From positions 2,450,236 to 2,514,235 of the forward strand of contig OZ252246.1 of the NCBI GenBank assembly GCA_965249625.1: a stretch of DNA of 64,000 nucleotides, read 5' to 3'. This DNA is from Nitrospinales bacterium (GTDB lineage Bacteria > Nitrospinota > Nitrospinia > Nitrospinales > VA-1). Made by a program: the position numbers and the translations under genes. Positions within the stretch are counted from its first letter, which is position 1. Each line of letters opens with the position of its first letter. Below the pieces are notes generated by a model that made no database searches, had not been told where the DNA came from, and worked only from the letters and a program-made list of their open reading frames with translations. This document shows, piece by piece, positions 37,245-58,778 of this stretch.

Positions 37245-37460
37245 AAGCGAGATTACCCCTTCGGGGCACGAGGGCTTGAGTTAAACATCACGTCTTCACT
37301 GCGTTCAGAATGACAATACAAGGCTATTTGTCATTCTGAGGAACAAGGTGACGAAGACGTGATATTTTTCCTTAAACTTCGTGCCCCGAAGGGGTATGTG
37401 ATATCCTCTTCATTAAACTTCATGCCCCGAAGGGGTAATCTGGGGTTATGCAAAGGTCTC
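37245..37460. mobile_element. MITE-like element, family A, copy 3 (reverse orientation, one outer end missing, internal 41-bp module duplicated)
   Basis: Collinear with the reverse complement of copies 1 and 2, from AAGCGAGATTACCCCTTCGGGGCACGAGGG to GGGGTTATGCAAAGGTCTC. Confidence 0.65.
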
Positions 37461-37615
37461 TGCTTCAGGCAGAACGCCACCGCGTTTTTGGGAAAAGAAG
37501 CATCGTGCTTCTTGCGAGTGAACCATTCCTCCTGCGCCGCAGCGATAATTTCACCGTCTTGCACCAGACAGGCTGCGGAGCCATGGTAAAACGCTGATAT
37601 CCCGAGTATGTTCAT
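37461..37615 (-). pseudogene. N-terminal ~52 codons of a NodU/CmcH-family carbamoyltransferase, truncated by the MITE
   Basis: MNILGISAFYHGSAACLVQDGEIIAAAQEEWFTRKKHDASFPKNAVAFCLKQ is the canonical family N-terminus. The ORF then runs straight into the MITE terminal repeat. Confidence 0.6.
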
Positions 37616-38925: not shown

Positions 38926-39336
38926 TTAATGATGAAAAATACTCTCGGGATATCGAGTCATGACCGAATGATTCTGGATGCCCGGCCTTTTGGAGTCCAA
39001 CTCCTGCTTTGAAATATATGGTGGGGATATTTTTTCATGGTCACCGTAGTCCTCCATGACAAACTGGTTCTTACTGCCTTCGCCCCGACGTGGTTTGGCG
39101 ATGAAGGGAAACGAGAACGAGGTCTCTAATTTTCCCGGCAAAAATGTTTGTGGGGTGTCGAATCCCTCATCTTTCAAAAACTCAAACAGTTTCCACTTAT
39201 CGTGACAAATCTCGATAGCATCATTTTCAGGTATCCACAAACGTCGGCCATTCGATTGGAGTTTAGCGTCTTGGAACACCTGGATCAGGGAAACCCTCCA
39301 ATACGAAGCCAGAAATAGGATTTTTAAAGTTTCCAT
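38926..39336 (-). CDS. ATP-grasp family protein, N-terminal fragment only (probably truncated)
   Basis: KILFLASYWRVSLIQVF..., DKWKLFEFLKDEGFDTPQTF and FPFIAKPRRGEGSKN are the pre-ATP-grasp and early ATP-grasp blocks. The ORF ends about 45 nt before pyrF without the catalytic C-terminal half. Confidence 0.4.
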   Translation of the reverse strand: METLKILFLASYWRVSLIQVFQDAKLQSNGRRLWIPENDAIEICHDKWKLFEFLKDEGFDTPQTFLPGKLETSFSFPFIAKPRRGEGSKNQFVMEDYGDHEKISPPYISKQELDSKRPGIQNHSVMTRYPESIFHH

Positions 39337-40265: not shown

Positions 40266-40379
40266 CTGAAAACCTCCTTCTTTGTGGAGAACCGCAGGCC
40301 AGCGTGACGCTTCGCTGACACTATAAACCCGAGGTTACGCATTTTCTACGTCAAGACTGGTCCGAAGTCGCAGAATTAT

Positions 40380-43070
40380 TTATGAAATAACGTCAAAACA
40401 AATTAACCTTAATCTTTCCTGATCGAGTGATAACGCATTTGATGAAAATGCGGTATAGTCCTTTTCAAAATCTGGATTAAAAGTTTGCCTAAGGTTATAC
40501 AATGAAACCATCAACAGCTTCACATTTTCCTGGATTTGAAAATCTTTATAAAATTTCCGTAGTTCTTTGACCTGAACATGAAGCATAGGCTGATTCAAAA
40601 ATTTAATCAGTTCTATGCACTGTGTACGCTCTACATCCGGGTGATTGATGTAACCTTGAATGGTTGTGGCGATGGTTTGCTGGATGGGATCAACGGTTCG
40701 CGGAGCGGCTTCTAATGATTTTTGTTCTTGATAGGAACATAATATATCATCCATGATTTTTTCTTGCAGGTCAAAAATTGAATGGAATATCTCTTGCTCT
40801 ACAATTCTCGGGGTTTCCTTATCGCATGCTATTAAATTAGCGATCACATAGCGATTATCAATAATTTTATTCTCTTTAAGATCAAAATATTTCCAGAAAT
40901 GGAATACCTCATTGGCTTGGCTGTTGGTTTGAAAATAGAAAAATACTCCCTTTGATCCAGGTCGAATGAGACCAGAGTGAATTCCATCGGGTAAAGTTTC
41001 CAACATTTCCTGCCCGCCCGAATCTAGTAATCCCTGCAATTGTTGCTTGAGAAATTCGTTGCTGGCCAGTTCCGTAAATTGCTCCTCTTCTTCGATCACC
41101 GAACCGTCCTCATCCATAATTCTTCTAAGAGTGTTAAAGTTTCTTGGATTTATGGTTTCCCCGAGAACGCTGGCATCCAGAAATCCCGCTTGATCGATAG
41201 ATGCAATCTTTGTTGTTAAACTTTCTACAAGTCCTAACAGTCTTTCTAATCCTTCATCGGGAAACATATTAAAAATGGAAAGAGTATCAAACTCCGTCCC
41301 AAGACGGTCAATTCGGCCTGCCCTCTGGATCATCCGGGTAGGATTCCAGTGAAGGTCGTAATTTATTAGATGACCGCAATCCTGAAGATTTTGCCCCTCA
41401 GACAACACATCTGAAGAAACTAAAATATCTATTTCTTTATCTGTCCCTATCCAGTCCTCTTTTTCATTAGCCTTTGGAGCAAAACCCTGAACCAGTTTTT
41501 CTTTTTCCTTTGGGTTAGCACCACTATCCATTCTACGAATTGCCGCATTGTCCAGTTGCTCAAGAAATTCCACAGCAGAGGGGTTTTTAAAATCACCAAT
41601 ATTTTTAAATAAATACCGGACTGTATCTTTATAGTGACTGAAAATCAGGACTTTTTTGCCACGGAGTTCCCCTGACAAATGCTCCTTAAGGCATTCCAGT
41701 TTTACGTCTTTTTCAGGCCCGATATCTTTTATGCGCTGCCAAATATTGGTTAGAATATCTCGGTCCTGTTGCAATGCATCATGAAGCCTCCTCAAATCAT
41801 ATAAAGAAGGATCAATCGTTTCCATTCCTTCTAATATATGTTTGGCCTCTTCGCTGGCATCCAAATCCTCAGCCAAGGATGATGGAACCGCATCATCCTC
41901 TTCATCTTCCCGTTCGAGGTATCTCAAGGCCTTATGAAATTCACTGCTTCTCAATAATTTCCCATCTAAAACGTAACTTTCAAAAGTTTTGAGAAATGCC
42001 AAAGCTCGTCGAATACTGATCCGAAATGCTTCTATACTGGACTCAAACCGCTTCAGGTAACGACTTTTAAAAATACCCACTAAAGCCTGTTCGCGGCCAA
42101 CTTCAAACTCATCGATTTCAGCCCCTTCTTTCTTATAATTCTCCAAATTGTATTGAGCGAATCTGAGACTATCGACACCCGATACTATATCCTCATAGAT
42201 TCCGGCATAAGTTGCTTCCAGGTTATATTGAATAGTTCGTAATCTTCGTTTAGGAAAATGTATTTTTTTGCCATTAATGGTGGCATCGGGATAAGCTCTG
42301 CGAATAAAAGGGCGCGTTCTGCGAACGACAATCTCTTCAAGAAGGTTGAAAAGGGCAATGGCGCTATTTCCCATCCTTGAGTCTCTGCGGACTTGCAAAA
42401 AATATCTGCGCAAATCGCCAATGCCACAGGCCGAGAAATAACTTTGGTCCCCACGGGTAATAAGACAAAGCTGGTTGTAAAGATCAAACAAATCGTTGTT
42501 GATGGGAGTTGCCGTCAATAGAATTATTTTTTTCCTGGCCCCTTCACGGCCTCGCCCACCATTAGCGCCTAAAACAAGTTCCAGATTTAAATATCTATTA
42601 GACCCCTTATTGCGAAAATTGTGGGATTCATCGATTAAAATAACATCTACATCTCCATAGGGTTCTGGGTCAAACTCATCTCTTCCCAAAGCTTCTTGAG
42701 ATAAAATTTTACCCGCAATGGAAGCATGGTTTAATTCACGCTCCCACATCTCCCTTAAAGCGGCGGGACATACGATAAGAGCCTTTTGCCGGAGATGGTA
42801 AGCGAAATCTTCCAAAAGCTTTTTCCCGATCCAGGTTTTTCCAAGGCCTACAGAATCGGCAATCATTACACCGTCATATCGCAATAAAATCTTTCTGGCT
42901 TTCTTGACCGCATCCTCCTGGAATTCGGCCAGTTCCACCGCGGACCGGGTGCCCGCTGACTCTTCTGAAGAAAGGTCTCCCTGAAAATACTCATAAAGGG
43001 CCTTCATATAGACTTGATAGGGAGTGTATTCGGTTCGGCCAAACTTGGAATCGTCCAGAAGCTGGATCAA
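40380..43070 (-). CDS. SNF2-family helicase/translocase, the downstream part of a split HKD-SNF2 gene (frame stays open up to ~43279)
   Basis: Motif I DSVGLGKTW, motif II ILIDESHNFRN, motif III LLTATPINN, motifs V/VI LSEGQNLQD...NYDLHWNPTRMIQRAGRIDRLG. The upstream in-frame sequence LEQWYQRQWDDSVDF continues the PLD-domain protein. Confidence 0.85.
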   Translation of the reverse strand: MIQLLDDSKFGRTEYTPYQVYMKALYEYFQGDLSSEESAGTRSAVELAEFQEDAVKKARKILLRYDGVMIADSVGLGKTWIGKKLLEDFAYHLRQKALIVCPAALREMWERELNHASIAGKILSQEALGRDEFDPEPYGDVDVILIDESHNFRNKGSNRYLNLELVLGANGGRGREGARKKIILLTATPINNDLFDLYNQLCLITRGDQSYFSACGIGDLRRYFLQVRRDSRMGNSAIALFNLLEEIVVRRTRPFIRRAYPDATINGKKIHFPKRRLRTIQYNLEATYAGIYEDIVSGVDSLRFAQYNLENYKKEGAEIDEFEVGREQALVGIFKSRYLKRFESSIEAFRISIRRALAFLKTFESYVLDGKLLRSSEFHKALRYLEREDEEDDAVPSSLAEDLDASEEAKHILEGMETIDPSLYDLRRLHDALQQDRDILTNIWQRIKDIGPEKDVKLECLKEHLSGELRGKKVLIFSHYKDTVRYLFKNIGDFKNPSAVEFLEQLDNAAIRRMDSGANPKEKEKLVQGFAPKANEKEDWIGTDKEIDILVSSDVLSEGQNLQDCGHLINYDLHWNPTRMIQRAGRIDRLGTEFDTLSIFNMFPDEGLERLLGLVESLTTKIASIDQAGFLDASVLGETINPRNFNTLRRIMDEDGSVIEEEEQFTELASNEFLKQQLQGLLDSGGQEMLETLPDGIHSGLIRPGSKGVFFYFQTNSQANEVFHFWKYFDLKENKIIDNRYVIANLIACDKETPRIVEQEIFHSIFDLQEKIMDDILCSYQEQKSLEAAPRTVDPIQQTIATTIQGYINHPDVERTQCIELIKFLNQPMLHVQVKELRKFYKDFQIQENVKLLMVSLYNLRQTFNPDFEKDYTAFSSNALSLDQERLRLICFDVIS

Positions 43071-43258
43071 CTGATCCTTGAAATCAACCGAGTCATCCCA
43101 TTGCCTTTGGTACCATTGTTCTAAATCAATGATGGCACGCGCTCCGACTTCACTTTTTATCAGTTGTCGATTGGAATCTTTTATTTGAGGACTGGGACTT
43201 TGATCGGCGAGCCAGGAGACGGCTTGTTGCGCATGAATATCATTTGCCTCGGAAGGGT

Positions 43259-43780
43259 CTAATAAAAAATCTTGTGGGCCAAATTAAGTTCGCGGTTAGA
43301 AGTTAAACCAGGAGTGGTAAAATTTGAGGAACCAACAATGGCCACAACAGGGCGAAATCGCTCGAAGAGCATTTGCTGACCAGGCCGGTCAGAATAAAAC
43401 AGCCAGCATTTGGCATGAAGAAATCCCTTATCATACATCTTGACTTCTACCTTCTGGTTTTGAAGGTAGGCAATCAGGTCTTCAATGAGTTTTAGAGTTT
43501 TTTCCTCAAATGGTAGAATCTCCAAATCTTTTTTTATAAGACCCTGAACATTATCTGGTCCTGGCTTAAGCCCTACTTGCTCACCAGAAGTAGGTTCGGC
43601 TCCAAGGAGCAATCGGAAAGAACCCAGAGAATTGAGGCCATTTTCCAAAAGCCCAAATCCCCCGACCGTAAAATAAGCCGTCGCCACATCCAGAGACTGG
43701 CCTTTATATTCTTCAAGAAGCCCGCTCAGAACCTTAGCGAGAATATGCTCTTGGTTATCTATGACGTATGGGATTTTCAA
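43259..43780 (-). CDS. Single-HKD phospholipase-D-family nuclease domain, the upstream part of the split HKD-SNF2 gene
   Basis: FLHAKCWLF...VGSSNFT (the HxK...GSxN motif). It ends at a TAG immediately after a T6 run (plus-strand A6 at 43264-43269). Confidence 0.8.
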   Translation of the reverse strand: MKIPYVIDNQEHILAKVLSGLLEEYKGQSLDVATAYFTVGGFGLLENGLNSLGSFRLLLGAEPTSGEQVGLKPGPDNVQGLIKKDLEILPFEEKTLKLIEDLIAYLQNQKVEVKMYDKGFLHAKCWLFYSDRPGQQMLFERFRPVVAIVGSSNFTTPGLTSNRELNLAHKIFY

Positions 43781-43861
43781 AGTATTCTATTTATCCTCAA
43801 GCCATTTTCCCTAGTGTTTCATAGCATAGAACTGATATTTCAAATAAAGCGAACCTCATTT

Positions 43862-44875
43862 TTACTTAATCCCCCATCGCCGACTACCTGTGCGGGTTGG
43901 AGAACCACATTGACTTAGCAATTGTCTATATCGAGCTGGTTCAAGCGATTTTTTTATTACTTCAAAGTAAACTCTCCCACCGGAACGTCTTCGAAAAAGA
44001 ATTAAACAGGGCCTATCCCGATAATCCAGTTCGTGAATTACTAAACGAGTCGTGTGATTGGAGTATCGTGTCATAGTCAGGTGGTGATCTTCCTTAGTTG
44101 CTCGGTTTTGTAAATGCACAGTGATACTTCCCCCTTGAAGATTAGGCAGACCAAAAAATGGTTTAGCTGCTTCCATTGGTATTTGTATTTGACTACCACC
44201 AGCCCCTGTTTCTCTATCCATAATCTCAAGGATCAGATCCCCCTTACGAGCTCCTCCAAAACCCCTAGAACCTGTTCCATTACCACCTCTTCGCTTACTC
44301 CAGGTAAATGTTGAAGCAACACGCGCCTCTGCTCTTTTAACCCCAAAGTCCTCCTTCTCTTTCCTGTAACTATCAAGTAGTGAAGAAGTTAGGGTTTCAC
44401 TGGATGATTCAATCATGCTGTGCCACATTAAAAGGCTTTTATTAGGATTGGAAAAATTCATTACAGTCGCGAATTCAATATTGTGCTTAAGTCCGTCGAG
44501 AGAAAGATTATTGCTTCCAACAATAATAGTTCCAGAATCATTAAGGACAAACCAAACAACTTTGGGATGGAAGATTCCATTATAATGCACTAGAAGTTTT
44601 ACGGTAACTCCATCTGTTTGCATATTTGCCAAGGCATTTGGGTCTGTAATTCCATGATCTGTACCAACATATGCTATGATTTCCCTGTTATTTTTTCTCT
44701 TTAACCAACTTTTTGCAGCTTTTCTGACCAAGCTCCATCCTGGATTCGTTACAGCATAAAAATACAAGCGTAATTCTGAGGCTTCCCGGTCTGAAGATAA
44801 TTTTTGAATAAACGTGTCATGAAAATTGGTAAGGGTCCAAGTTGCACCCTGGGCAGTTGGAAGAAAGTTTTTCAT
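43862..44875 (-). CDS. Single-HKD PLD-family endonuclease (NgoFVII/BfiI-like architecture) with an uncharacterised basic C-terminal domain
   Basis: FHPKVVWF...IIVGSNNLS HKD motif in the N-terminal half. ATGA overlap with the methyltransferase stop (44872-44875). Confidence 0.7.
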   Translation of the reverse strand: MKNFLPTAQGATWTLTNFHDTFIQKLSSDREASELRLYFYAVTNPGWSLVRKAAKSWLKRKNNREIIAYVGTDHGITDPNALANMQTDGVTVKLLVHYNGIFHPKVVWFVLNDSGTIIVGSNNLSLDGLKHNIEFATVMNFSNPNKSLLMWHSMIESSSETLTSSLLDSYRKEKEDFGVKRAEARVASTFTWSKRRGGNGTGSRGFGGARKGDLILEIMDRETGAGGSQIQIPMEAAKPFFGLPNLQGGSITVHLQNRATKEDHHLTMTRYSNHTTRLVIHELDYRDRPCLILFRRRSGGRVYFEVIKKSLEPARYRQLLSQCGSPTRTGSRRWGIK

Positions 44876-47800
44876 TTCATGCTCCTGATTTCATTTGCTA
44901 GATTTTTATCGACACTGCCGATTTGATCTTCAAGTGCTTCATTAAATTTGGTTGTAGCTTCGGTAATGGCACGTTTGTTGGGTTTAGTGTTAAGTAATTC
45001 GTGAAATTCGGTTCCGATATGCTCAGCCCATGGTTGGTCCAAAAATGGAATTGGAATATCTTCAAGATGGGTTATTTTTAACTCGGCAAAAAGTTTGCCT
45101 GTGCGTGGCTGGATTGATCTGAAAAACCACGTAGCAAAACGCGAGTTTAGAACTGCACAAATATAGATTGCAGCCTTCCATTTCATCTTTGGTAGTGGTA
45201 CACAAATGAAAAAATTGTTAGAGAAAAAGTAGCCTTCAGTGTCGATTGCGGCAAGAATGTAATCTCCCGTTCTTCTCACAATGATTTTATGGGATTTATA
45301 GAGGTTAGAATCACCAAGGTTGAAGTATTCACCTTCCTCTCGTTTGAAAACAAGTGGGTCCAGTTGAATATACTTACCTTCCCAAGTTATCTGCATTGGG
45401 GAAATCTCATCGCGCCCAAAAATGAGGGGTTCGCAGAAATCCCCAACAATTTTTTCTAGGAATAGCTTTTCTCGAACGTTTCCCGAATGTATGCCCTCGC
45501 GAAGCGTGAATATCTTGCCCATTGGAACGCCAATAGAACACGCAATATCCAGCAATTCTTGAAGGCGTGGCGAAAGACATAAGTTGAAACGAAACTGTTT
45601 GGTCGTTTTGAAAGTAGATTGTTTAATGAGGTTTACAAGTGATGTCTGGATTTGTCCATCTGGGACCTCGGGAATGCAGCGAATCAGGTGTTCCTCTTTT
45701 GGTATGTAAGCTTTAGCCACCAACGAACACACATCAATACTGGCTTGGTCGAAGGCTTTTCCCCAATGCGCAATTTCCACTATTGAGGTTCGTTGTAATA
45801 AGAGCTGGCGAATACTAGGGTAATTCTTCAAAAGTATAATGTCGGGCAATAGCAAGCCAATAAATCCATCCGATATTACCAAATCGGACGATAGCTCAGA
45901 AAAAATAGCAAACGTATCGACTAATCCCTGTTGCGAGCCCTCAAATTGGAAACGGATAAGGTCTTTTGTTTGAGGGGAGATATAAGCACCCCATGGTGGA
46001 TTCCCAATTACTGCGTCGAACCCGCCATGTTCCATTTTTTGGATTACCTGGGTAGTTCCAGAATCGGGACCGTAAAAAACTTCAGGGAATTCCAATTCCC
46101 AATGGAAAAAGCGGTTAATTTCGAAATCTTTTATTGTATTGCTAACAATTTTCCTAGATTGGTCTGTAAGACCATCCGTTTTAAATTTAACATCCAGCCA
46201 TTCCTGAGATTCTTGTGATTTCAAGAAATCCACAGCGTCCCTGACTTCTTTCTTATTTTTGCCTTTTCCTACTTTTCGAATGGGGTTGCTGAACCATTGG
46301 CTCGTATAAATATCAAGGATTCGTTTGAACGGAACCAAAGCATCCGAGGCTTTATTAAATTCCTCTCGTGACTGTTTTACTTGAGCGCTGGTGACATCGG
46401 ACAACTCGCCGACATGACGCATCAAACCTGTTGCCAACATCAAACCGGTAAACTGGCTTCCGCCAAAAAGCAGAGATTGACCCTTTTCAATTTCCTTCTG
46501 AGCTTCCTCCACATTTGAGCCAATCAAGGAGTTTCCGCATTTCATATGATGATCCAGGAAAGACAGGGGAGCACCCAGTGTGAAACAATCCAACCACAAA
46601 GAAACTTTAGCCAGTTCCACCGCCATGGGATTGAGGTCCACGCCGTATATACAACGTTTGAGCACATATCTTTTAAGAAGATTGACATCGGTCAGGCGGT
46701 TACGGTCGATGGTAATCCTCTGTTCGTCCATCTCTTTGAGAATGGTCTGGCGGGTTTCCTCCAAATGGGCGAAAACAGGATTCCAGGGAAACTTGTTTAA
46801 GAAATCAATGATCTTGTCTGTGATGAAATCAACCGCCTCCACGAGAAAGTGACCTGACCCCATAGCCGGGTCGAGAACTTTGATGTTGAATAATTCATCC
46901 ACGACATGGCGGTAGGTGAATGCGACTTTTTCAGGGTCGTCCTCTTTCATTTTTTGCTTTTCAAAAGCTTCCTTCCGCTTAACGGCCTCCTTGTAGGCTT
47001 GTTGAGCTTCCCGAAATTTGCTCCGCATCTCTTGTTCGAATTTTTCTTCCAGCACCGGACCTACAGCGTTTTCGATGATGTATTCAACGATATGATCCGG
47101 CGTGTAATAGGACCCCGTGGCTTTACGCTCGTGTTTATCGTTTTCAAGATAGACGGTTCCTTTCGATAGAGTACGTTCTTTCGCGTTTTTTCCCCGGCCT
47201 ATGGTAAGGATTTTCTGATTATCTGCTTGTTTGTAAGGAATAATGAGTTCTGTTTTCTTTCCTTTAACCACCGCCATCTTTTCAGGAGCAATGCGAACCT
47301 TGAATTCCAACAAACCTTCATAAATAGAACCCAATTGGCGAACGCCAAGGGATTTGAAATCGATGGATACCAAATCCTGCCTCTTATCATCGATATCTCG
47401 TGTCAATAGGTTGATGGCTTTGGCAAGTTGGAGGTCGGGAACTTTGTTGGAATTAAGAAACCGGGCGTTCTCGGCCTCGGGGCTTGTATCATTATCGTGA
47501 ACGTCGTTCAGGAAAAGGCCGCCGTTATATACCGGAACATTGAGATTAGCATCTCCCCGATCAATGATTTCAAACAAACGTGTTAATCTTTCATAAAGCG
47601 TATATTGATTATTCTTATAATGTTTTTTGAGTTTGGAGTCCGCTTCATCGACTAAGGTTCCTGCCACACCCGCAATTTCTGTTTTGAGCTTATGCAAACT
47701 GGCTTCAAAATAACCACGGGTTTCCTTGACGGGCAATAAATCCCTCGCTTCCGCGTATAGGAGAAACAATAACCGATAAAGAAAAGTGAGGGTCCCTTGA

Positions 47801-49158
47801 AAAACCTTATCCAAATTTTCCTGAGAAAATTCCGCATGCAATCCTTCTCTATCCCGCGCATGGGCAACGAATCCCTCTGAAAGGTGAGGAAATATCTTTT
47901 CAAATACCCTTTCCTTAAGCCGCTTCCCAAGTTCCTTTGCATAATTCTTGCTTTCTGTCAGGAGTCTGTCCAGAAAAGTGGTGGTTTTCTCTTCTCCTTC
48001 AATCGTTAGAGTGGTTGGTTCAAATGACTGCCTGCGAAATAACAGCCAAAAATATCTAAAGGCTTCGGCGGGGTCTCCCACCCTTTGTCCACTTTGAGCC
48101 AGGACTTCTTCCAAATCGATTTGATAATAGTTGGTTGCCCTGGAATGGGCATGCCGGGAATAAAGCCTCCAGATTTTTCCATTAGTCACTATGGCCCATG
48201 GGGCTTCTCCCACTTCCAGCAAGCTGACAACAACCGCTCCGGGGTTTTCTTCAGGACTTTCCTTATCCCTTTCAGGGTCTTTTCCATCCAGGGAACGACC
48301 CCAAGGGTAAACCAAAGAGAAAGCGAGAGGCTGGCTATCGCTGGTTGAAGCCATTAGACGGTAGTCTGGTTCGGCAATATCGCTTCCCGCTTTTTTCCCT
48401 ACCTTATATGAGAAACCTAGTATTTTTAATGTGGACTCCAGGAGTTCTTTTCTCAGAACTTCTTCCTTTTGTCCCCTCATTTTTGGAGACTTCTCTAAAA
48501 ACAGTTTGTTCAATTCTAAAAATGCAGGTTTCGGGTTCTCCGACCATTCAGGGAAATCCCGGAGCCTCTCTATAAGGTAATAATCCGAAAATAAAGCGCG
48601 GTTATTGAAGAATTCTTCCGACCAATCGGCAATGGCATAAGCAGAGATAAACTTATCGTACTGAGCAAAGGGATCGCTTTCTGTATAGGTGAATCTCTTT
48701 AAAACCCGCAGGTGAACGCGAGAAGGTTTTTTCCGTTCAACAGTTAAAGTTCGTGGGCGAATTCCCACTTGGGGAGAACCTATTGTCTTTTTTGAGGGGC
48801 TGGTTAAGGGAAGATATTTTTCCAGCAAAACAAAATCGATTCGTTCGTAGTCGCTGGTCAGAACTAAAAGATAGTTTCCGGTCCTGTTACGAAAGTTCCG
48901 GGCAAGCGCACGGGTATGAGTTACGGTAACGCTGGTTAATTCGAATAAGTAGACTTGAAAAAGGCCATCCTCGTCAGCGAGCAACTCAATTTTCTTAATG
49001 GGCCGGAGAGTTCCTTCCGCGGAAATCCCCAGATTGCTGGCAGTCTGTACAATACGGCTATTTGTATTGAACCCCAAGCTTGAGAAAAAACCTTCCAAAG
49101 CATCGGCACTGGAAAGTTGTTGAATATCATGGAGGGTAAGGTCTCGGTCAAATATCAT
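44872..49158 (-). CDS. Giant (1428 aa) type IIG-like gamma-class N6-adenine DNA methyltransferase with a degenerate N-terminal nuclease-like domain
   Basis: ALFSDYYLIERL...PDYRL...WAIVTNGKIWRLY N-terminal module. YYTPDHIV, motif I LDPAMGSGHFLVEAV and motif IV VIGNPPWG. A C-terminal region of about 390 aa is a presumed TRD. Confidence 0.85.
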   Translation of the reverse strand: MIFDRDLTLHDIQQLSSADALEGFFSSLGFNTNSRIVQTASNLGISAEGTLRPIKKIELLADEDGLFQVYLFELTSVTVTHTRALARNFRNRTGNYLLVLTSDYERIDFVLLEKYLPLTSPSKKTIGSPQVGIRPRTLTVERKKPSRVHLRVLKRFTYTESDPFAQYDKFISAYAIADWSEEFFNNRALFSDYYLIERLRDFPEWSENPKPAFLELNKLFLEKSPKMRGQKEEVLRKELLESTLKILGFSYKVGKKAGSDIAEPDYRLMASTSDSQPLAFSLVYPWGRSLDGKDPERDKESPEENPGAVVVSLLEVGEAPWAIVTNGKIWRLYSRHAHSRATNYYQIDLEEVLAQSGQRVGDPAEAFRYFWLLFRRQSFEPTTLTIEGEEKTTTFLDRLLTESKNYAKELGKRLKERVFEKIFPHLSEGFVAHARDREGLHAEFSQENLDKVFQGTLTFLYRLLFLLYAEARDLLPVKETRGYFEASLHKLKTEIAGVAGTLVDEADSKLKKHYKNNQYTLYERLTRLFEIIDRGDANLNVPVYNGGLFLNDVHDNDTSPEAENARFLNSNKVPDLQLAKAINLLTRDIDDKRQDLVSIDFKSLGVRQLGSIYEGLLEFKVRIAPEKMAVVKGKKTELIIPYKQADNQKILTIGRGKNAKERTLSKGTVYLENDKHERKATGSYYTPDHIVEYIIENAVGPVLEEKFEQEMRSKFREAQQAYKEAVKRKEAFEKQKMKEDDPEKVAFTYRHVVDELFNIKVLDPAMGSGHFLVEAVDFITDKIIDFLNKFPWNPVFAHLEETRQTILKEMDEQRITIDRNRLTDVNLLKRYVLKRCIYGVDLNPMAVELAKVSLWLDCFTLGAPLSFLDHHMKCGNSLIGSNVEEAQKEIEKGQSLLFGGSQFTGLMLATGLMRHVGELSDVTSAQVKQSREEFNKASDALVPFKRILDIYTSQWFSNPIRKVGKGKNKKEVRDAVDFLKSQESQEWLDVKFKTDGLTDQSRKIVSNTIKDFEINRFFHWELEFPEVFYGPDSGTTQVIQKMEHGGFDAVIGNPPWGAYISPQTKDLIRFQFEGSQQGLVDTFAIFSELSSDLVISDGFIGLLLPDIILLKNYPSIRQLLLQRTSIVEIAHWGKAFDQASIDVCSLVAKAYIPKEEHLIRCIPEVPDGQIQTSLVNLIKQSTFKTTKQFRFNLCLSPRLQELLDIACSIGVPMGKIFTLREGIHSGNVREKLFLEKIVGDFCEPLIFGRDEISPMQITWEGKYIQLDPLVFKREEGEYFNLGDSNLYKSHKIIVRRTGDYILAAIDTEGYFFSNNFFICVPLPKMKWKAAIYICAVLNSRFATWFFRSIQPRTGKLFAELKITHLEDIPIPFLDQPWAEHIGTEFHELLNTKPNKRAITEATTKFNEALEDQIGSVDKNLANEIRSMK

Positions 49159-49354
49159 TTCAAAATACTAAAATTCGATCAGCGTGGGGCCAATGAGTAA
49201 TAACTCTTCTGGCAAGTAACTATGTTATCGGCTTATTAAGCCCTCTGCCCAGTTTCCACCGGGCGCGTGGTACTTACCTCACCTTAGCTTTCATGCCCCG
49301 GAGGGGTATGGCGGATACAATATGTTGTGGGCTGGGCCTCAAAGTATACCAAAC

Positions 49355-49363
49355 ATGGTATAA
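49355..49363 (+). promoter_or_regulatory. Candidate extended -10 promoter upstream of smc
   Basis: TGgTATAAT (TG at 49355-49356, TATAAT at 49358-49363), about 90 nt upstream of the smc ATG. No good -35 element. Confidence 0.3.
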
Positions 49364-49453
49364 TTTCACTTTACAATATCTCAGGATTGGGATAATCTTC
49401 CTTCCAGAATATATGACTCAAAAGATCCGATAATCCCCGGAGCCCCACCAAAT

Positions 49454-55724: not shown

Positions 55725-58700
55725 TTACCGTACTTTTTCTTTTTTAGCAGTTAGGGTAGAAGTTTTTTTGAATGGTATACCAAGCCAACCACAAACTTGC
55801 TGCCTGAGTTGATAATCCTCTTCAAAAAGCAAAAAATGCATTGAGGTAAGTATTTGTAAAATTCTATTATTAAAAGGCTCGTTTTTAAGTTCCTTAATTA
55901 AACCTTTTACCTCTGAAGTAGGGAATGACTGAAAATGATCATATTTAATTGAAATATCAACAAACCTGTTTCCAATATTTCCGTCACTTTTCAAAATTTC
56001 CGCGAAGGTCAATCGAAGATTTGGAGAACCAACCGATGAAGATACTTTTTTTATAAAAGAAATAATTGCAATTTGCGAAAGGAAATAAATTAACCCTCTT
56101 ATTAGTTTTTTTATTCTCTTTTCATCTGCCTTTGAATTTTCCTTTTTTATTTCTTCATAAAAACTTTCAATAAAGTCGTCAAGAGAAGACTCTAGGAGAA
56201 CAGAAAAGGATTTAATTGCTCTCATCCCCAAAGCATAACAAGCATTAGCCAAGTCAATTTTTTTCGCACTTTCCAACGAGCCCGCATAACTTCTTAAAAT
56301 TTGACCGGATACTTGAAGAGCTTTTGTAGCTCTGTTAAAATCTGAAGAATCGGAATCAGAACTAACTTCACTTGAGGATCTTTGTTCAATCTCATCTTTT
56401 GCTTTATTTAATTCCTGTCTGACCTCTCTGGGAGAAGTATCCTCTAAATTAATTAACTCAACATCAATTTTGTCATCCAAACCATCTAAAAATTTAAAGT
56501 CCTCAGAAAAATCACAAGGAGGGTATTGTTTAAATGTTCCATTTGTTTGTTCTAGTACCGTCTCAAGAATTAGAGGGTCCTTGCTGAAATGACTTAATAA
56601 TATTATTATGTTTGCATAATCCTCTCTGTGCAGACCGAGAGCAATTTTGTTAAATATGTTTTTGATCTCATCTTCATGGAAATGGTCAGCCAAATACTTT
56701 GCAAGGAAATAGTAAAAAGAAAACTGGTACTTAAAACAAAATAAATTATTTATTTCAGAGAGTATTGTTGCAAAACATAAGTGTTCAACAACCTTACCAA
56801 AATTCAAATTTAATGCGAATTTCTTATTATGCGAATTATGAAATTCTTCGAATTCTTCTTTTCCTATTGCTGTACTTTCATTTTCAAATAATATGTAAGC
56901 CAGCTCTGACAAATAAGTATTTAAAGTTACCAAATCGACCTTGCCAATATTAGACTCCCGAAGCTTGGCAGATATCAAAAACTCAAATAATTCCCCATAC
57001 GACCCGGAAATCAGAATATGCTTTTTATTAGCCTCTATTTGCTGAAGTAATGTCAAAATAAATACAGGGACCGCAGGAAACATCCTTGAAGCCAAAACGC
57101 TTGACAACAATCTATCTATCCGATCAACCTCCCTGATAAACTCCTGCCCATTGCATGAATATTCCTGACCTAAAATCAACCATTTTTCCACCATTTCACA
57201 TCTCAAGTAATTTTTAAATGGCATAATTTCTAAATTGATGAAATCTTTAAATGGATTTTCTTCTTTTTTGGAATATTTCAATTTTTCAAAATTCAAGGAG
57301 TCATCTGCAACTAAAAAGAATTTTGTGAAATATTGCCTTAACTTTTCAACGATTTTCACTTTTCCCGCATCGTTGACTTCAAACAAATGAACATTATCTA
57401 TAATAGCGACTTTTTTCTCCTTTTCTAATTGCCTATATTTTCCCCAATCAGTATTGTCATATTGCTCCACAAAACATTCCTCTATATATTTTTCAAACTT
57501 CCCATCTTTCAACAAGTGTTCATTAAATCTTGAGCCGTCAAAATAAATTGGAACTAACCCATTTTTCCTAAAAATCGAAAAAGCTTGTTTTGTTAATGCC
57601 GTTTTACCAGAAAACCGCTCCCCTACAACCAACAGGTTATTACTTAAAATATAATCTGGGACCTCTTCACTTGAGATATATTTGACCGGGTTAGAATCGC
57701 CTGAAAGGTCCCCTCCTTCCAAACACCTAAGATCCGGAAACACAAATATATCATCAAGGGAAACATGCGACTTTCTTGGATGTGAATATGTAGTTCCTAA
57801 ATCTTCAATGAATTCAGAAATATTCTTTCCAAACTGAAATGTATTTTTGACAAGAACAGGGTTTCTCTTAAACTCTAGCCACTCTGTTGACTTTTCACGA
57901 ATTTCCTTATATCCACATATTTTATTTTCAAATTCATAAAATAATTTCTTTTGCTTTCGGTTTTTAAAATCAATTAAAACTACATTGAAAGAACTATTAA
58001 GTGAGTTTTTGGAGTCATTCAAAACGCCCCCTTCAAAAAATTCATTCCTTGACGAATGAGTAAACTCTTTCGAGAAACTTCCAGGAACATGCTCATGCCC
58101 GGTTAGTATTAAATCTGAGCTTTCTTCCACCATACCTTTAAAAACTCTCGAATTATTAGATTCAAGCCAACTATATGGATGGTGAAAAACTGAGATTATC
58201 AAAGAGTTTGGAGGCGATTTTAAAGTGATTTCAACCGGAAAAAGCAATGTGCCCTGTTGTTCTTTTTTTGTAGAAATCCATGCCGTGTTGAAACAATTTA
58301 TAATAATCTTTTCCTGTTCAAACTCAAATTCGCGAGTCCAATAAATTTTATTTTTTATATTTTGGTCCTCAACTTGCTCAATAAAATTGAAAAAATTTGT
58401 TTGAGGCTCAATTACGATATCTACCAATTCCTTTTTGAATGTTTTTTTATCTTTTATTTTTTCAATAATTGTGTCTCTAACTATATTTTCATTTGATATG
58501 TCACAATCATGATTACCCGGAACAAATATTGTTTTGACTGGGATGTCCTTAAATCTGCTTTCAACCTCACAAAGCAACTCGAAAAAAAACTCTTCAGCTA
58601 TGTCAAATTGTTCTTTTTTACCGGAAAACGAAATATCCCCTGTAAATATTAATAAACAACCTTTGACTTCGGGGTCAACATTTGCGATTGCGTTTATTAA

Positions 58701-58778
58701 ATGTGGGAGTTTTTTATGAATTGGTTCATTGGCCTTTTCAATATGGATATCGCTTAAATGAATTATTTGGATTTTCAT
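55725..58778 (-). CDS. 1017-aa fusion protein: calcineurin-like metallophosphoesterase + P-loop NTPase + ~550-aa helical C-terminal region (candidate single-gene defence/conflict system)
   Basis: All MPE motifs are present: D10-x-H12 (LSDIH), G47-D48 (FTGD), GNHD 88-91, HH 199-200 and GHEH 227-230. Walker A is GERFSGKT (386-393) and Walker B-like is VAIIDN (457-462). The gene is strikingly AT-rich relative to its neighbours. Confidence 0.8.
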   Translation of the reverse strand: MKIQIIHLSDIHIEKANEPIHKKLPHLINAIANVDPEVKGCLLIFTGDISFSGKKEQFDIAEEFFFELLCEVESRFKDIPVKTIFVPGNHDCDISNENIVRDTIIEKIKDKKTFKKELVDIVIEPQTNFFNFIEQVEDQNIKNKIYWTREFEFEQEKIIINCFNTAWISTKKEQQGTLLFPVEITLKSPPNSLIISVFHHPYSWLESNNSRVFKGMVEESSDLILTGHEHVPGSFSKEFTHSSRNEFFEGGVLNDSKNSLNSSFNVVLIDFKNRKQKKLFYEFENKICGYKEIREKSTEWLEFKRNPVLVKNTFQFGKNISEFIEDLGTTYSHPRKSHVSLDDIFVFPDLRCLEGGDLSGDSNPVKYISSEEVPDYILSNNLLVVGERFSGKTALTKQAFSIFRKNGLVPIYFDGSRFNEHLLKDGKFEKYIEECFVEQYDNTDWGKYRQLEKEKKVAIIDNVHLFEVNDAGKVKIVEKLRQYFTKFFLVADDSLNFEKLKYSKKEENPFKDFINLEIMPFKNYLRCEMVEKWLILGQEYSCNGQEFIREVDRIDRLLSSVLASRMFPAVPVFILTLLQQIEANKKHILISGSYGELFEFLISAKLRESNIGKVDLVTLNTYLSELAYILFENESTAIGKEEFEEFHNSHNKKFALNLNFGKVVEHLCFATILSEINNLFCFKYQFSFYYFLAKYLADHFHEDEIKNIFNKIALGLHREDYANIIILLSHFSKDPLILETVLEQTNGTFKQYPPCDFSEDFKFLDGLDDKIDVELINLEDTSPREVRQELNKAKDEIEQRSSSEVSSDSDSSDFNRATKALQVSGQILRSYAGSLESAKKIDLANACYALGMRAIKSFSVLLESSLDDFIESFYEEIKKENSKADEKRIKKLIRGLIYFLSQIAIISFIKKVSSSVGSPNLRLTFAEILKSDGNIGNRFVDISIKYDHFQSFPTSEVKGLIKELKNEPFNNRILQILTSMHFLLFEEDYQLRQQVCGWLGIPFKKTSTLTAKKEKVR

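Follow-up and report, generated by a model that had tools for sequence, protein, structure and literature searches.

What does a giant N6-adenine methyltransferase (MTase) do beside two nucleases of the phospholipase D (PLD) family, one of which is fused to an ATP-driven motor, in the genome of a Nitrospinales bacterium? The three genes in question lie co-oriented on the minus strand at positions 40380-49158 of a 64,000-nucleotide stretch (contig OZ252246.1 of assembly GCA_965249625.1), the whole of which is called the window in the following. They encode an MTase of 1428 amino acids (aa), a 337-aa PLD nuclease referred to here as PLD-B3, and an HKD-SNF2 protein, whose gene is frameshifted. 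A preliminary description, based on the letters of the window, left two readings side by side: (a) one integrated ATP-dependent restriction-like system, or (b) a type II-like MTase/PLD nuclease pair next to an independent, SauUSI-like type IV enzyme. We regard it as fairly probable that the genes constitute a horizontally acquired defence cassette of the restriction-modification (R-M) type, in which one large N6-adenine MTase is common to two PLD-family arms. The trio then consists of two nested pairs sharing this MTase: the MTase with HKD-SNF2, and its target recognition domain (TRD) with PLD-B3.

An insertion between an arsC-family gene and smc

The preliminary description had treated the three genes as one island, and the empty site in relatives confirms it. 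Three loci (L199-L201; L numbers designate the loci compared in this study), reached via an arsC-family protein more than 90% identical to that of the window, share with it about 80-85% nucleotide identity and full synteny. In these relatives, the arsC-family gene and smc are divergent direct neighbours with a spacer of 340 base pairs (bp), so that the window holds an insertion of only these three genes. Synteny with L200 ends at window position 40278 and restarts near 49183 ('GCGTGGGGCCAA'), and the junction alignment puts the insertion point some 20 bp upstream of the start codon of arsC. The trio was acquired by horizontal transfer as a single unit, flanked in the window by the arsC/glutaredoxin-family gene and a NUDIX gene on one side and by smc on the other. 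The GC content of the block is 42.5% vs 48.4% in the remainder of the 64-kilobase (kb) window, and the lowest value among 63 segments of equal length elsewhere (46.0%) still lies above it, in agreement with the AT-richness noted before. Orientation, coordinates and lengths of the genes were likewise reproduced from the open reading frames (ORFs), as were the ATGA overlap of the MTase stop with the PLD-B3 start and the 81-bp gap between the PLD-B3 gene and the HKD-SNF2 gene, which starts with TTG at 43780.

Only about 22 bp upstream of the first ATG have come with the cassette, which is therefore probably transcribed from the native arsC-smc intergenic region; this region now lies between the MTase start and smc and probably supplies the promoter. 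Searches at the island boundaries detected neither a tRNA gene nor an integrase nor flanking direct repeats, terminator and promoter enrichment there gave nothing convincing, and an Rfam scan of the window was empty. The juxtaposition of the three genes cannot be put down to chance, because complete trios with the same gene order recur in five further independent loci (L031/L093 from Pirellulales, L037, L098, L203 and L205); two other contigs (L014, L204) end after the PLD gene.

The methyltransferase and its HKD-SNF2 partner

The MTase is composed of a family-specific N-terminal region (residues 1-650), a gamma-class core and a C-terminal TRD of the TaqI_C type (Table 1). Pfam matches comprise Eco57I (4.7e-23), TaqI_C (2.7e-23) and N6_Mtase, with MmeI_Mtase and MmeI_hel scoring weakly; motif I VLDPAMGSGHFL (DPAMGSGHFL) and motif IV NPPW are present in the translation and conserved in the alignment. 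The best PADLOC models are DrmMI (1.6e-86) and type IIG, both far below the family cut-offs, the best NCBIfam model is BREX-1 PglX (85 bits vs a cut-off of 500), and a direct sequence search against the PDB also leads to BREX PglX. Residues 1-650 are strongly conserved across 40 homologues and have 1499 relatives in a library of cluster representatives; their sole Pfam match is a weak MmeI_hel, and their AF2 model (mean predicted local distance difference test score, pLDDT, 85) resembles no PDB fold below E = 0.02. The exact MTase of the window is contained in the protein collection, where a 50-aa fragment stands for its 90% cluster, a database artefact that explains the lack of a 100% match in the homologue search.

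The preliminary description had called this enzyme 'nuclease-dead', a label read from the position of its N-terminal region, which is plausible and which our searches neither confirm nor exclude. No nuclease family was detected in residues 1-450, either with Pfam at E ≤ 10 or in a profile search against PDB sequences. Foldseek returned weak PD-(D/E)XK-like hints for the N-terminus, namely Hjc (2eo0, E = 0.16, probability 0.57), splicing endonucleases, ThaI and RecU. Active enzymes of this kind carry an E-x-K motif after the PD; a 'PDY...TNG..WRLY' scaffold is present here, and all homologues have L-V-Y at the place where E-x-K would be expected.

The adjacent helicase gene belongs with this MTase, because the pair is conserved and the N-terminal MTase region co-varies with the helicase. 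HKD-SNF2 adjoins an MTase of the same family in every locus examined, including loci devoid of PLD-B3: in L034, L035 and L036 the helicase gene follows the MTase gene directly with nothing between, and in L119 and L120 the two genes are split by unrelated inserts. Comparison of two match tables yielded at least 16 further cases of an MTase match and a helicase match on contigs of identical size. A word-indexed search with the helicase, restricted to 8000 candidates, gave at least 7614 matches at E ≤ 0.001; other SNF2 proteins may account for many of these, and the best 120 are all at least 64% identical. Co-variation is illustrated by L034, in which the N-terminal 645 aa of the MTase are 85% identical to those of the window and the helicase 87%, the C-terminus of the MTase being unrelated. 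The N-terminal region is thus likely to be the surface that couples the MTase to its helicase. The MTase + HKD-SNF2 pair is widespread, and neither of its proteins has a specific model in PADLOC 2.0 or NCBIfam 20.0, so that a common ATP-dependent R-M-like family appears to have remained undescribed.

The HKD-SNF2 protein itself carries an HKD nuclease domain, in which H122-x-K124 and GSSN are invariant in 24 homologues, and an SF2 ATPase with the motifs GLGKT, DESH, TATP and QRAGRIDR. Its best named model is PADLOC C3a139 'HKD+Snf2' (7e-66), a candidate type III CRISPR accessory protein (PMC6546367), and the PADLOC model DrmD matches at 5e-34; the NCBIfam model DISARM_DrmD reaches 143 bits against a cut-off of 610. 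RapA leads the PDB sequence matches, then come generic helicases, and the H subunit of CglI is not among the matches listed. Pfam revealed no reader domain for modified bases, be it DUF3427, SRA or another. Fusions of an HKD domain with an SF2 helicase are seen as the part of type I/III-like systems that carries out restriction (PMC10853773, PMC12839542). In the cassette as we picture it, the MTase would mark self DNA at the sites that its C-terminal TRD reads, and in the first arm it would, probably via its N-terminal region, recruit HKD-SNF2 to unmodified sites; HKD-SNF2 would then translocate with ATP and cut with a dimeric HKD site, following the logic of type I, III and ISP enzymes.

In the window, this gene loses its reading frame within six consecutive T. 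Insertion of a single T restores '...AHKIFLLDP...', where homologues read 'AHKVLLDP', and gives a protein of 1133 aa, matching the preliminary estimate of about 1130 aa after one repair as well as the intact homologues (1131-1134 aa, up to 88% identity over 100% of the length); the N-terminus, too, agrees with homologues ('IPYVIDNQ'). The public annotation of the source genome holds only an 875-aa product (P0122). Two origins are conceivable for the frameshift, a genuine slip mutation and an error in the assembly. Unless it is the latter, the motor arm is broken in this genome and only the MTase + PLD-B3 arm looks intact; with the frameshift breaking the first arm and both other genes intact, the cassette would be in the state of the motor-free pair L097 described below.

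One might go further and see in the whole block a decaying remnant without present restriction function, an orphan methylase with relics. The frameshift in the helicase-nuclease gene speaks for it, and so do truncated genes in the vicinity: compared with L199/L200, the carbamoyltransferase gene (window 37331-37615) is shortened to 94 aa from 604 and the ATP-grasp gene (window 38926-39336) to 136 aa from 311, which indicates that the neighbourhood underwent deletions and bears on whether the helicase frameshift reflects real decay. However, the MTase and PLD-B3 frames are uninterrupted and retain every catalytic residue, the single frameshift lies in a homopolymer, an error type that the 2.86-Mb assembly may hold, and both parts of the split gene are otherwise open and conserved, so that we consider such a remnant quite unlikely.

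The interval that separates the MTase gene from the HKD-SNF2 gene is a hotspot of further insertion. L120 (5192-7989) holds a pair that by eye resembles AbiEi/AbiEii, a label with no family-library scan behind it, together with a small Zn-ribbon ORF; L119 (3070-3954) holds a 295-aa protein, L203 (12299-12825) a DUF3644 protein and L205 (12361-12630) a DUF4926 protein. Relatives of the cassette sit in defence or mobile-element neighbourhoods, with a CBASS-like SMODS gene, ArdC and TraG-like genes in L034 (16039-17971, 2788-5139), a Prim-Pol gene, an integrase and a RelE/MqsA pair in L036 (16756-22413), and a GmrSD_N gene straight after PLD-B3 in L038 (3419-4753). A scan of viral contigs with the single helicase sequence returned nothing; an alignment-based scan of such contigs recovered mainly another family, SNF2/DUF4391/type III, which served as the PLD-B3-negative control.

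PLD-B3 and the target recognition domain

The preliminary description had identified the 337-aa protein as a single-HKD PLD nuclease, and H102, K104 and the G119-S-N-N122 (GSNN) motif, invariant in 32 homologues, bear this out. What it had not recognised is the second half of the protein. Judged from its AF2 model (pLDDT 88.9), the protein is predicted to combine a single-HKD PLD domain (about residues 10-185) with a C-terminal B3-like DNA-binding pseudobarrel (about 210-336), that is, the architecture of BfiI and R.NgoAVII. Foldseek aligns the model with BfiI (2c1l) over the full length at 1e-13 and with R.NgoAVII (4rct) at 1.8e-6; further matches include the BfiI C-terminal domain with DNA (3zi5), the B3 domain of UbaLAI, NucT and the PLD domain of SauUSI. 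Searching the PDB sequences with a profile points in the same direction (BfiI 3e-5, SauUSI 2e-5), Pfam gives a weak PLDc_2 match, and a direct single-sequence PDB search yields a marginal SauUSI match only.

The PLD-B3 family comprises at least 186 clusters. Genome and metagenome scans retrieved about 90 PLD-B3 loci, in which a methylase gene is almost always adjacent (in L040, PLD-B3 follows the Res gene rather than standing beside the methylase). Approximately 66 of them belong to type III R-M systems and have PLD-B3 between the Mod and Res genes or next to these, often with SNF2 and DUF4391 genes upstream; seven show the order SNF2, DrmMI-like MTase, PLD-B3 and a YprA-like DEAD+MZB protein, and in the others PLD-B3 lies beside IIG-type MTases, either in trios or in bare MTase + PLD-B3 pairs. 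PLD-B3 appears to be a facultative plug-in, because the same type III/SNF2/DUF4391 systems occur mostly without it. The layout of SNF2, DUF4391, type III Mod, optional PLD-B3 and type III Res with RE_endonuc is itself very common (L006, L010, L126-L148 and many others) and abundant in IMG/VR contigs, and DUF4391 is hardly mentioned in the literature searched, turning up in two papers. L097 is a bare MTase + PLD-B3 pair set among housekeeping genes, yebC-ruvC-ruvA flanking it on one side and the genes of homocitrate synthase and an IF-2B-family protein on the other; this stand-alone pair rules out that PLD-B3 always comes with a motor.

Whether a locus carries PLD-B3 follows the TRD of the methylase. 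A TRD like that of the window (34-65% identity, 49-65% in most) is present in 15 of 17 IIG-type MTases next to PLD-B3, and the similarity persists where the core has fallen to 31-34% identity (the DISARM-like loci L003, L020 and L042, and L039). Conversely, five MTases of loci without PLD-B3 (L034, L035, L036, L119, L120) have cores 49-71% identical to that of the window and a TRD that is undetectable (L034, L036, L120) or weakly similar (L035 and L119, 23-35% over 84-132 aa), which makes the contrast 15/17 vs 0/5 (Fisher p = 8e-4). Type III systems behave alike: a central TRD segment of Mod is found in 10 of 11 with and 2 of 9 without PLD-B3 (p = 0.005), being kept across lineages and gene orders (L021, L040) in most PLD-B3-linked Mods and replaced in most PLD-B3-free ones, although SNF2 and Res there are 64-97% identical. 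The association also predicts: 14 of about 165 family MTases have a window-like C-terminus, and all three MTases that were chosen solely by this feature had PLD-B3 immediately downstream. Furthermore, the identity of PLD-B3 follows TRD identity (rho 0.61) and not core identity (rho -0.30). As far as sequence comparison reaches, the presence of PLD-B3 thus tracks one TRD family and not the MTase core.

Single-HKD PLD nucleases such as Nuc, BfiI and R.NgoAVII dimerise to form one active site. In the second arm of the proposed cassette, PLD-B3 would most likely recognise, or be docked at, the sites that this TRD methylates, and would cut them as a dimer. It may cut alone, as BfiI does, or be helped by the motor as in CglI/NgoAVII; stand-alone MTase + PLD-B3 pairs such as L097 suggest that it is autonomous.

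Reading (b) of the preliminary description fares well in its first half, since the PLD nuclease and the TRD of the MTase are indeed a cognate pair, found alone in L097. Its second half would make HKD-SNF2 an autonomous SauUSI-like type IV PLD-helicase unrelated to the MTase. Two such independent systems would accommodate the TRD/PLD-B3 coupling, the PLD domain of SauUSI among the best matches of the PLD-family domains and the unrelated inserts accepted between the MTase and HKD-SNF2 genes, for example the AbiE-like pair in L120. They are nevertheless very unlikely in view of the constant company of a same-family MTase in the loci examined, the co-variation of HKD-SNF2 with the N-terminal region of that enzyme and the absence of a DUF3427 or other reader domain from the Pfam results. 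Moreover, according to type IV logic, a modification-dependent nuclease fixed beside an active methylase would be self-toxic.

Reading (a) holds insofar as HKD-SNF2 is coupled to the MTase, and fails in its strict form, as PLD-B3 is dispensable. That form would be a machine like CglI/NgoAVII, which is composed of a methylase M, an R subunit with PLD and B3 domains and a helicase H, the R2H2 complex cleaving in an ATP-dependent manner (PMC5861437, PMC4267653, PMC4267654); in CglI, the R2 dimer reads GCCGC via its B3 domains and cutting needs the H2 helicase dimer and ATP (PMC5861437). Transferred to the cassette, PLD-B3 would be the sole site-reading R subunit of an R2H2-like assembly, needing the SNF2 motor and making the trio obligate. 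The predicted R.NgoAVII/BfiI architecture of PLD-B3, the requirement of CglI for its helicase subunit (PMC5861437, PMC4267653), an SF2 motor (SNF2 or type III Res) encoded in most PLD-B3 loci and the tight spacing of the three genes (ATGA overlap, 81-bp gap) all fit this idea. Yet MTase + HKD-SNF2 is complete and common without PLD-B3, L097 is motor-free, the motors vary (SNF2 with HKD, SNF2 without HKD, Res) and none is a DEAD-Z1 protein like H.CglI, and HKD-SNF2 possesses an intact nuclease motif of its own. A strictly integrated machine therefore seems unlikely to us.

A broader reading, which we put forward tentatively and would not call the expected outcome, is that PLD-B3 and its matching TRD form a portable 'specificity + effector' module, grafted repeatedly onto unrelated ATP-dependent modification systems, namely type III Mod/Res with SNF2/DUF4391, DISARM/ARMADA-like loci and the MTase + HKD-SNF2 pair. 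Each graft would add a second, BfiI-like arm that reads the sites of the methylase and may borrow the resident SF2 motor. At least three defence architectures have taken up a BfiI-like PLD nuclease that is co-inherited with a TRD. Should nuclease and TRD recognise one and the same sequence, nature would offer here a case of specificity and effector being swapped as one module; the CglI/NgoAVII paradigm would then extend to SNF2 and type III motors, and the targets of PLD-family restriction enzymes would become predictable from methylome motifs.

Several points weigh against the two-armed cassette and against a shared specificity of its second arm. Between the type III Mod TRD and the IIG-type TRD, HMM (hidden Markov model) searches in both directions detected no homology. 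L069 and L087 are IIG-type MTases beside PLD-B3 without a window-like TRD, and L138 and L139 are type III systems with the TRD segment and without PLD-B3; the TRD statistics given above are drawn from related, non-independent loci, several of which are duplicated between collections. The B3-like domain is conserved like the PLD domain (mean pairwise identity 52% and 47%, respectively), so that it could serve non-specific DNA binding or a protein contact instead of sequence reading. Both domains correlate moderately with TRD identity (PLD rho 0.45, B3 rho 0.31), and for this reason a shared DNA site and protein docking are not separated by these data. The frameshift may mean that the cassette is partly decayed here, and both the defence role and the methylation motif are ones that we infer.

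Known systems and the wider window

Neither PADLOC nor NCBIfam was found to offer a model specific to the pair or the trio, and the literature searched contains related classes but no named system with the layout of the trio. The cassette is accordingly best described as a new combination of known parts and not as a system of a novel type; CglI/NgoAVII and BfiI come closest to it. Like CglI/NgoAVII, it has a three-gene layout of methylase, nuclease and helicase-like ATPase, and PLD-B3 is predicted to share the N-terminal PLD and C-terminal B3-like domains of the R subunit. Unlike these systems, its motor is a 1133-aa SNF2 protein with its own HKD domain and not a 632-aa DEAD-Z1 helicase (H.CglI carries no PLD domain), and its methylase is a 1428-aa gamma-class N6-adenine MTase with a TaqI_C TRD where theirs is a C5-cytosine methylase; outside the PLD core there is no detectable sequence similarity to R.CglI or R.NgoAVII, and the MTase/motor pair can do without PLD-B3, which in turn can occur motor-free. 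BfiI, a type IIS enzyme with a metal-independent PLD domain, is the best full-length structural match and also the best sequence-profile match for a restriction enzyme; it shares the PLD and B3-like domains and an adjacent methylase (the ATGA overlap in the window, the L097 pair). However, its identity to PLD-B3 is only about 13%, and it uses small separate methylases without a motor, whereas the partner of PLD-B3 is a giant IIG-like methylase, usually in motor-containing systems.

The order of N-terminal region, MmeI-type helical spacer, gamma-class MTase and C-terminal TRD is that of type IIG/IIL enzymes (Eco57I, MmeI), and in function MTase + HKD-SNF2 would by analogy resemble a type ISP enzyme (LlaGI) split into two genes. 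In contrast to both classes, no recognisable nuclease domain was detected in the methylase of the cassette, the nuclease and motor reside on a separate polypeptide, and the nuclease is PLD-type and not PD-(D/E)XK/Mrr-type. Type-2 BREX-related (Hma-like) systems combine an effector consisting of an N-terminal HKD endonuclease and a Swi2/Snf2 helicase with an N6-adenine methylase (PMC12839542, PMC10853773); unlike them, the cassette lacks the DUF499/BrxC-like ATPase, the DUF3780 protein and the CxC-ABC/DndE partner (PMC12839542), HmaA matches at 1.7e-23 only, and the 650-aa N-terminal region of the MTase is family-specific.

The preliminary description had missed no hallmark in stating that those of DISARM and BREX are lacking: DrmA, DrmB, PglZ and BrxC are absent from the three-gene cassette. 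Could it nonetheless be a degenerate or minimal class 1 DISARM, comprising DrmMI, DrmC and DrmD after loss of DrmA and DrmB? Its MTase is distantly related to DrmMI and its helicase to DrmD, it includes a PLD nuclease, the best PADLOC matches are DrmMI, DrmD and, weakly, DrmC (5e-7), and the PLD-B3 family occupies a DrmC-like position in DISARM-like loci with the order SNF2-MTase-PLD-YprA (DEAD+MZB) (L001, L003, L020, L042). On the other hand, exactly three genes were inserted, no DrmA, DrmB (DUF1998/MZB) or MZB homologue lies within the 64-kb window (a tblastn search of it with the DEAD+MZB protein found no match), and the NCBIfam scores of DrmD (143 vs 610) and DrmC (15.5 vs 133) stay far from their cut-offs. 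In addition, MTase + HKD-SNF2 is conserved alone in many taxa, the MTase cores of DISARM-like loci are about 31% identical to that of the window, the helicase of the cassette carries an HKD domain, and PLD-B3 has a B3-like domain where DrmC has a 4-helix bundle (PMC12458937). We hold a DISARM origin to be extremely unlikely and retain the two-armed cassette as the preferred reading.

As an observation on the DISARM-like loci themselves, L001 (11108-16201) encodes SNF2, a DrmMI-like MTase, PLD-B3 and a 1697-aa protein with DEAD, Helicase_C and MZB domains, and the same set lies upstream in L020 and L042. These loci resemble systems of the DISARM/ARMADA/BRIGADE type (PMC12458937), with a BfiI-like nuclease replacing the 4-helix-bundle DrmC.

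Table 1. Positions of the insertion, its genes and their parts in the window
Feature	Position	Strand	Basis
Inserted three-gene cassette, 8.9 kb	40282..49182 (approximate)	-	Junction alignment with L199-L201, GC 0.425
MTase ORF, 1428 aa	44872-49158	-	
MTase residues 1-650, family-specific N-terminal region ending in MmeI-type helical spacer	47209..49158	-	Homologue alignment, weak MmeI_hel
MTase residues 651-1129, gamma-class N6-adenine core	45772..47208	-	Pfam, PADLOC, motifs
MTase residues 1130-1428, C-terminal TRD, TaqI_C type	44875..45771	-	Pfam TaqI_C 2.7e-23
PLD-B3 ORF, predicted PLD-B3 nuclease, 337 aa	43862-44875	-	AF2 + Foldseek, PDB sequence profile, invariant residues
HKD-SNF2 gene, two ORFs	43259-43780 (173 aa) and 40380-43070 (896 aa)	-	
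HKD-SNF2, 5' part: HKD (PLD) nuclease domain, TTG start, ends at premature stop	43259..43780	-	Pfam PLDc_2 1.3e-7
Six-T run, reading frame lost	43264..43269	-	One added T restores the frame
HKD-SNF2, 3' part: SNF2-family SF2 ATPase and conserved C-terminal region	40380..43268	-	Pfam SNF2-rel_dom, Helicase_C
Native arsC-smc intergenic region, now between MTase start and smc	49183..49453	.	Aligns with intergenic region of L199-L201

Beyond smc, the window contains a second low-GC block (55725-58778, minus strand, GC 0.32) consisting of a single ORF of 1017 aa with calcineurin-like phosphoesterase, AAA_14 and nSTAND_NTPase4 domains. Among the PADLOC models, it matches PDC-S60, a candidate defence protein, at 8e-80 and is probably an independently acquired, single-gene STAND defence island.

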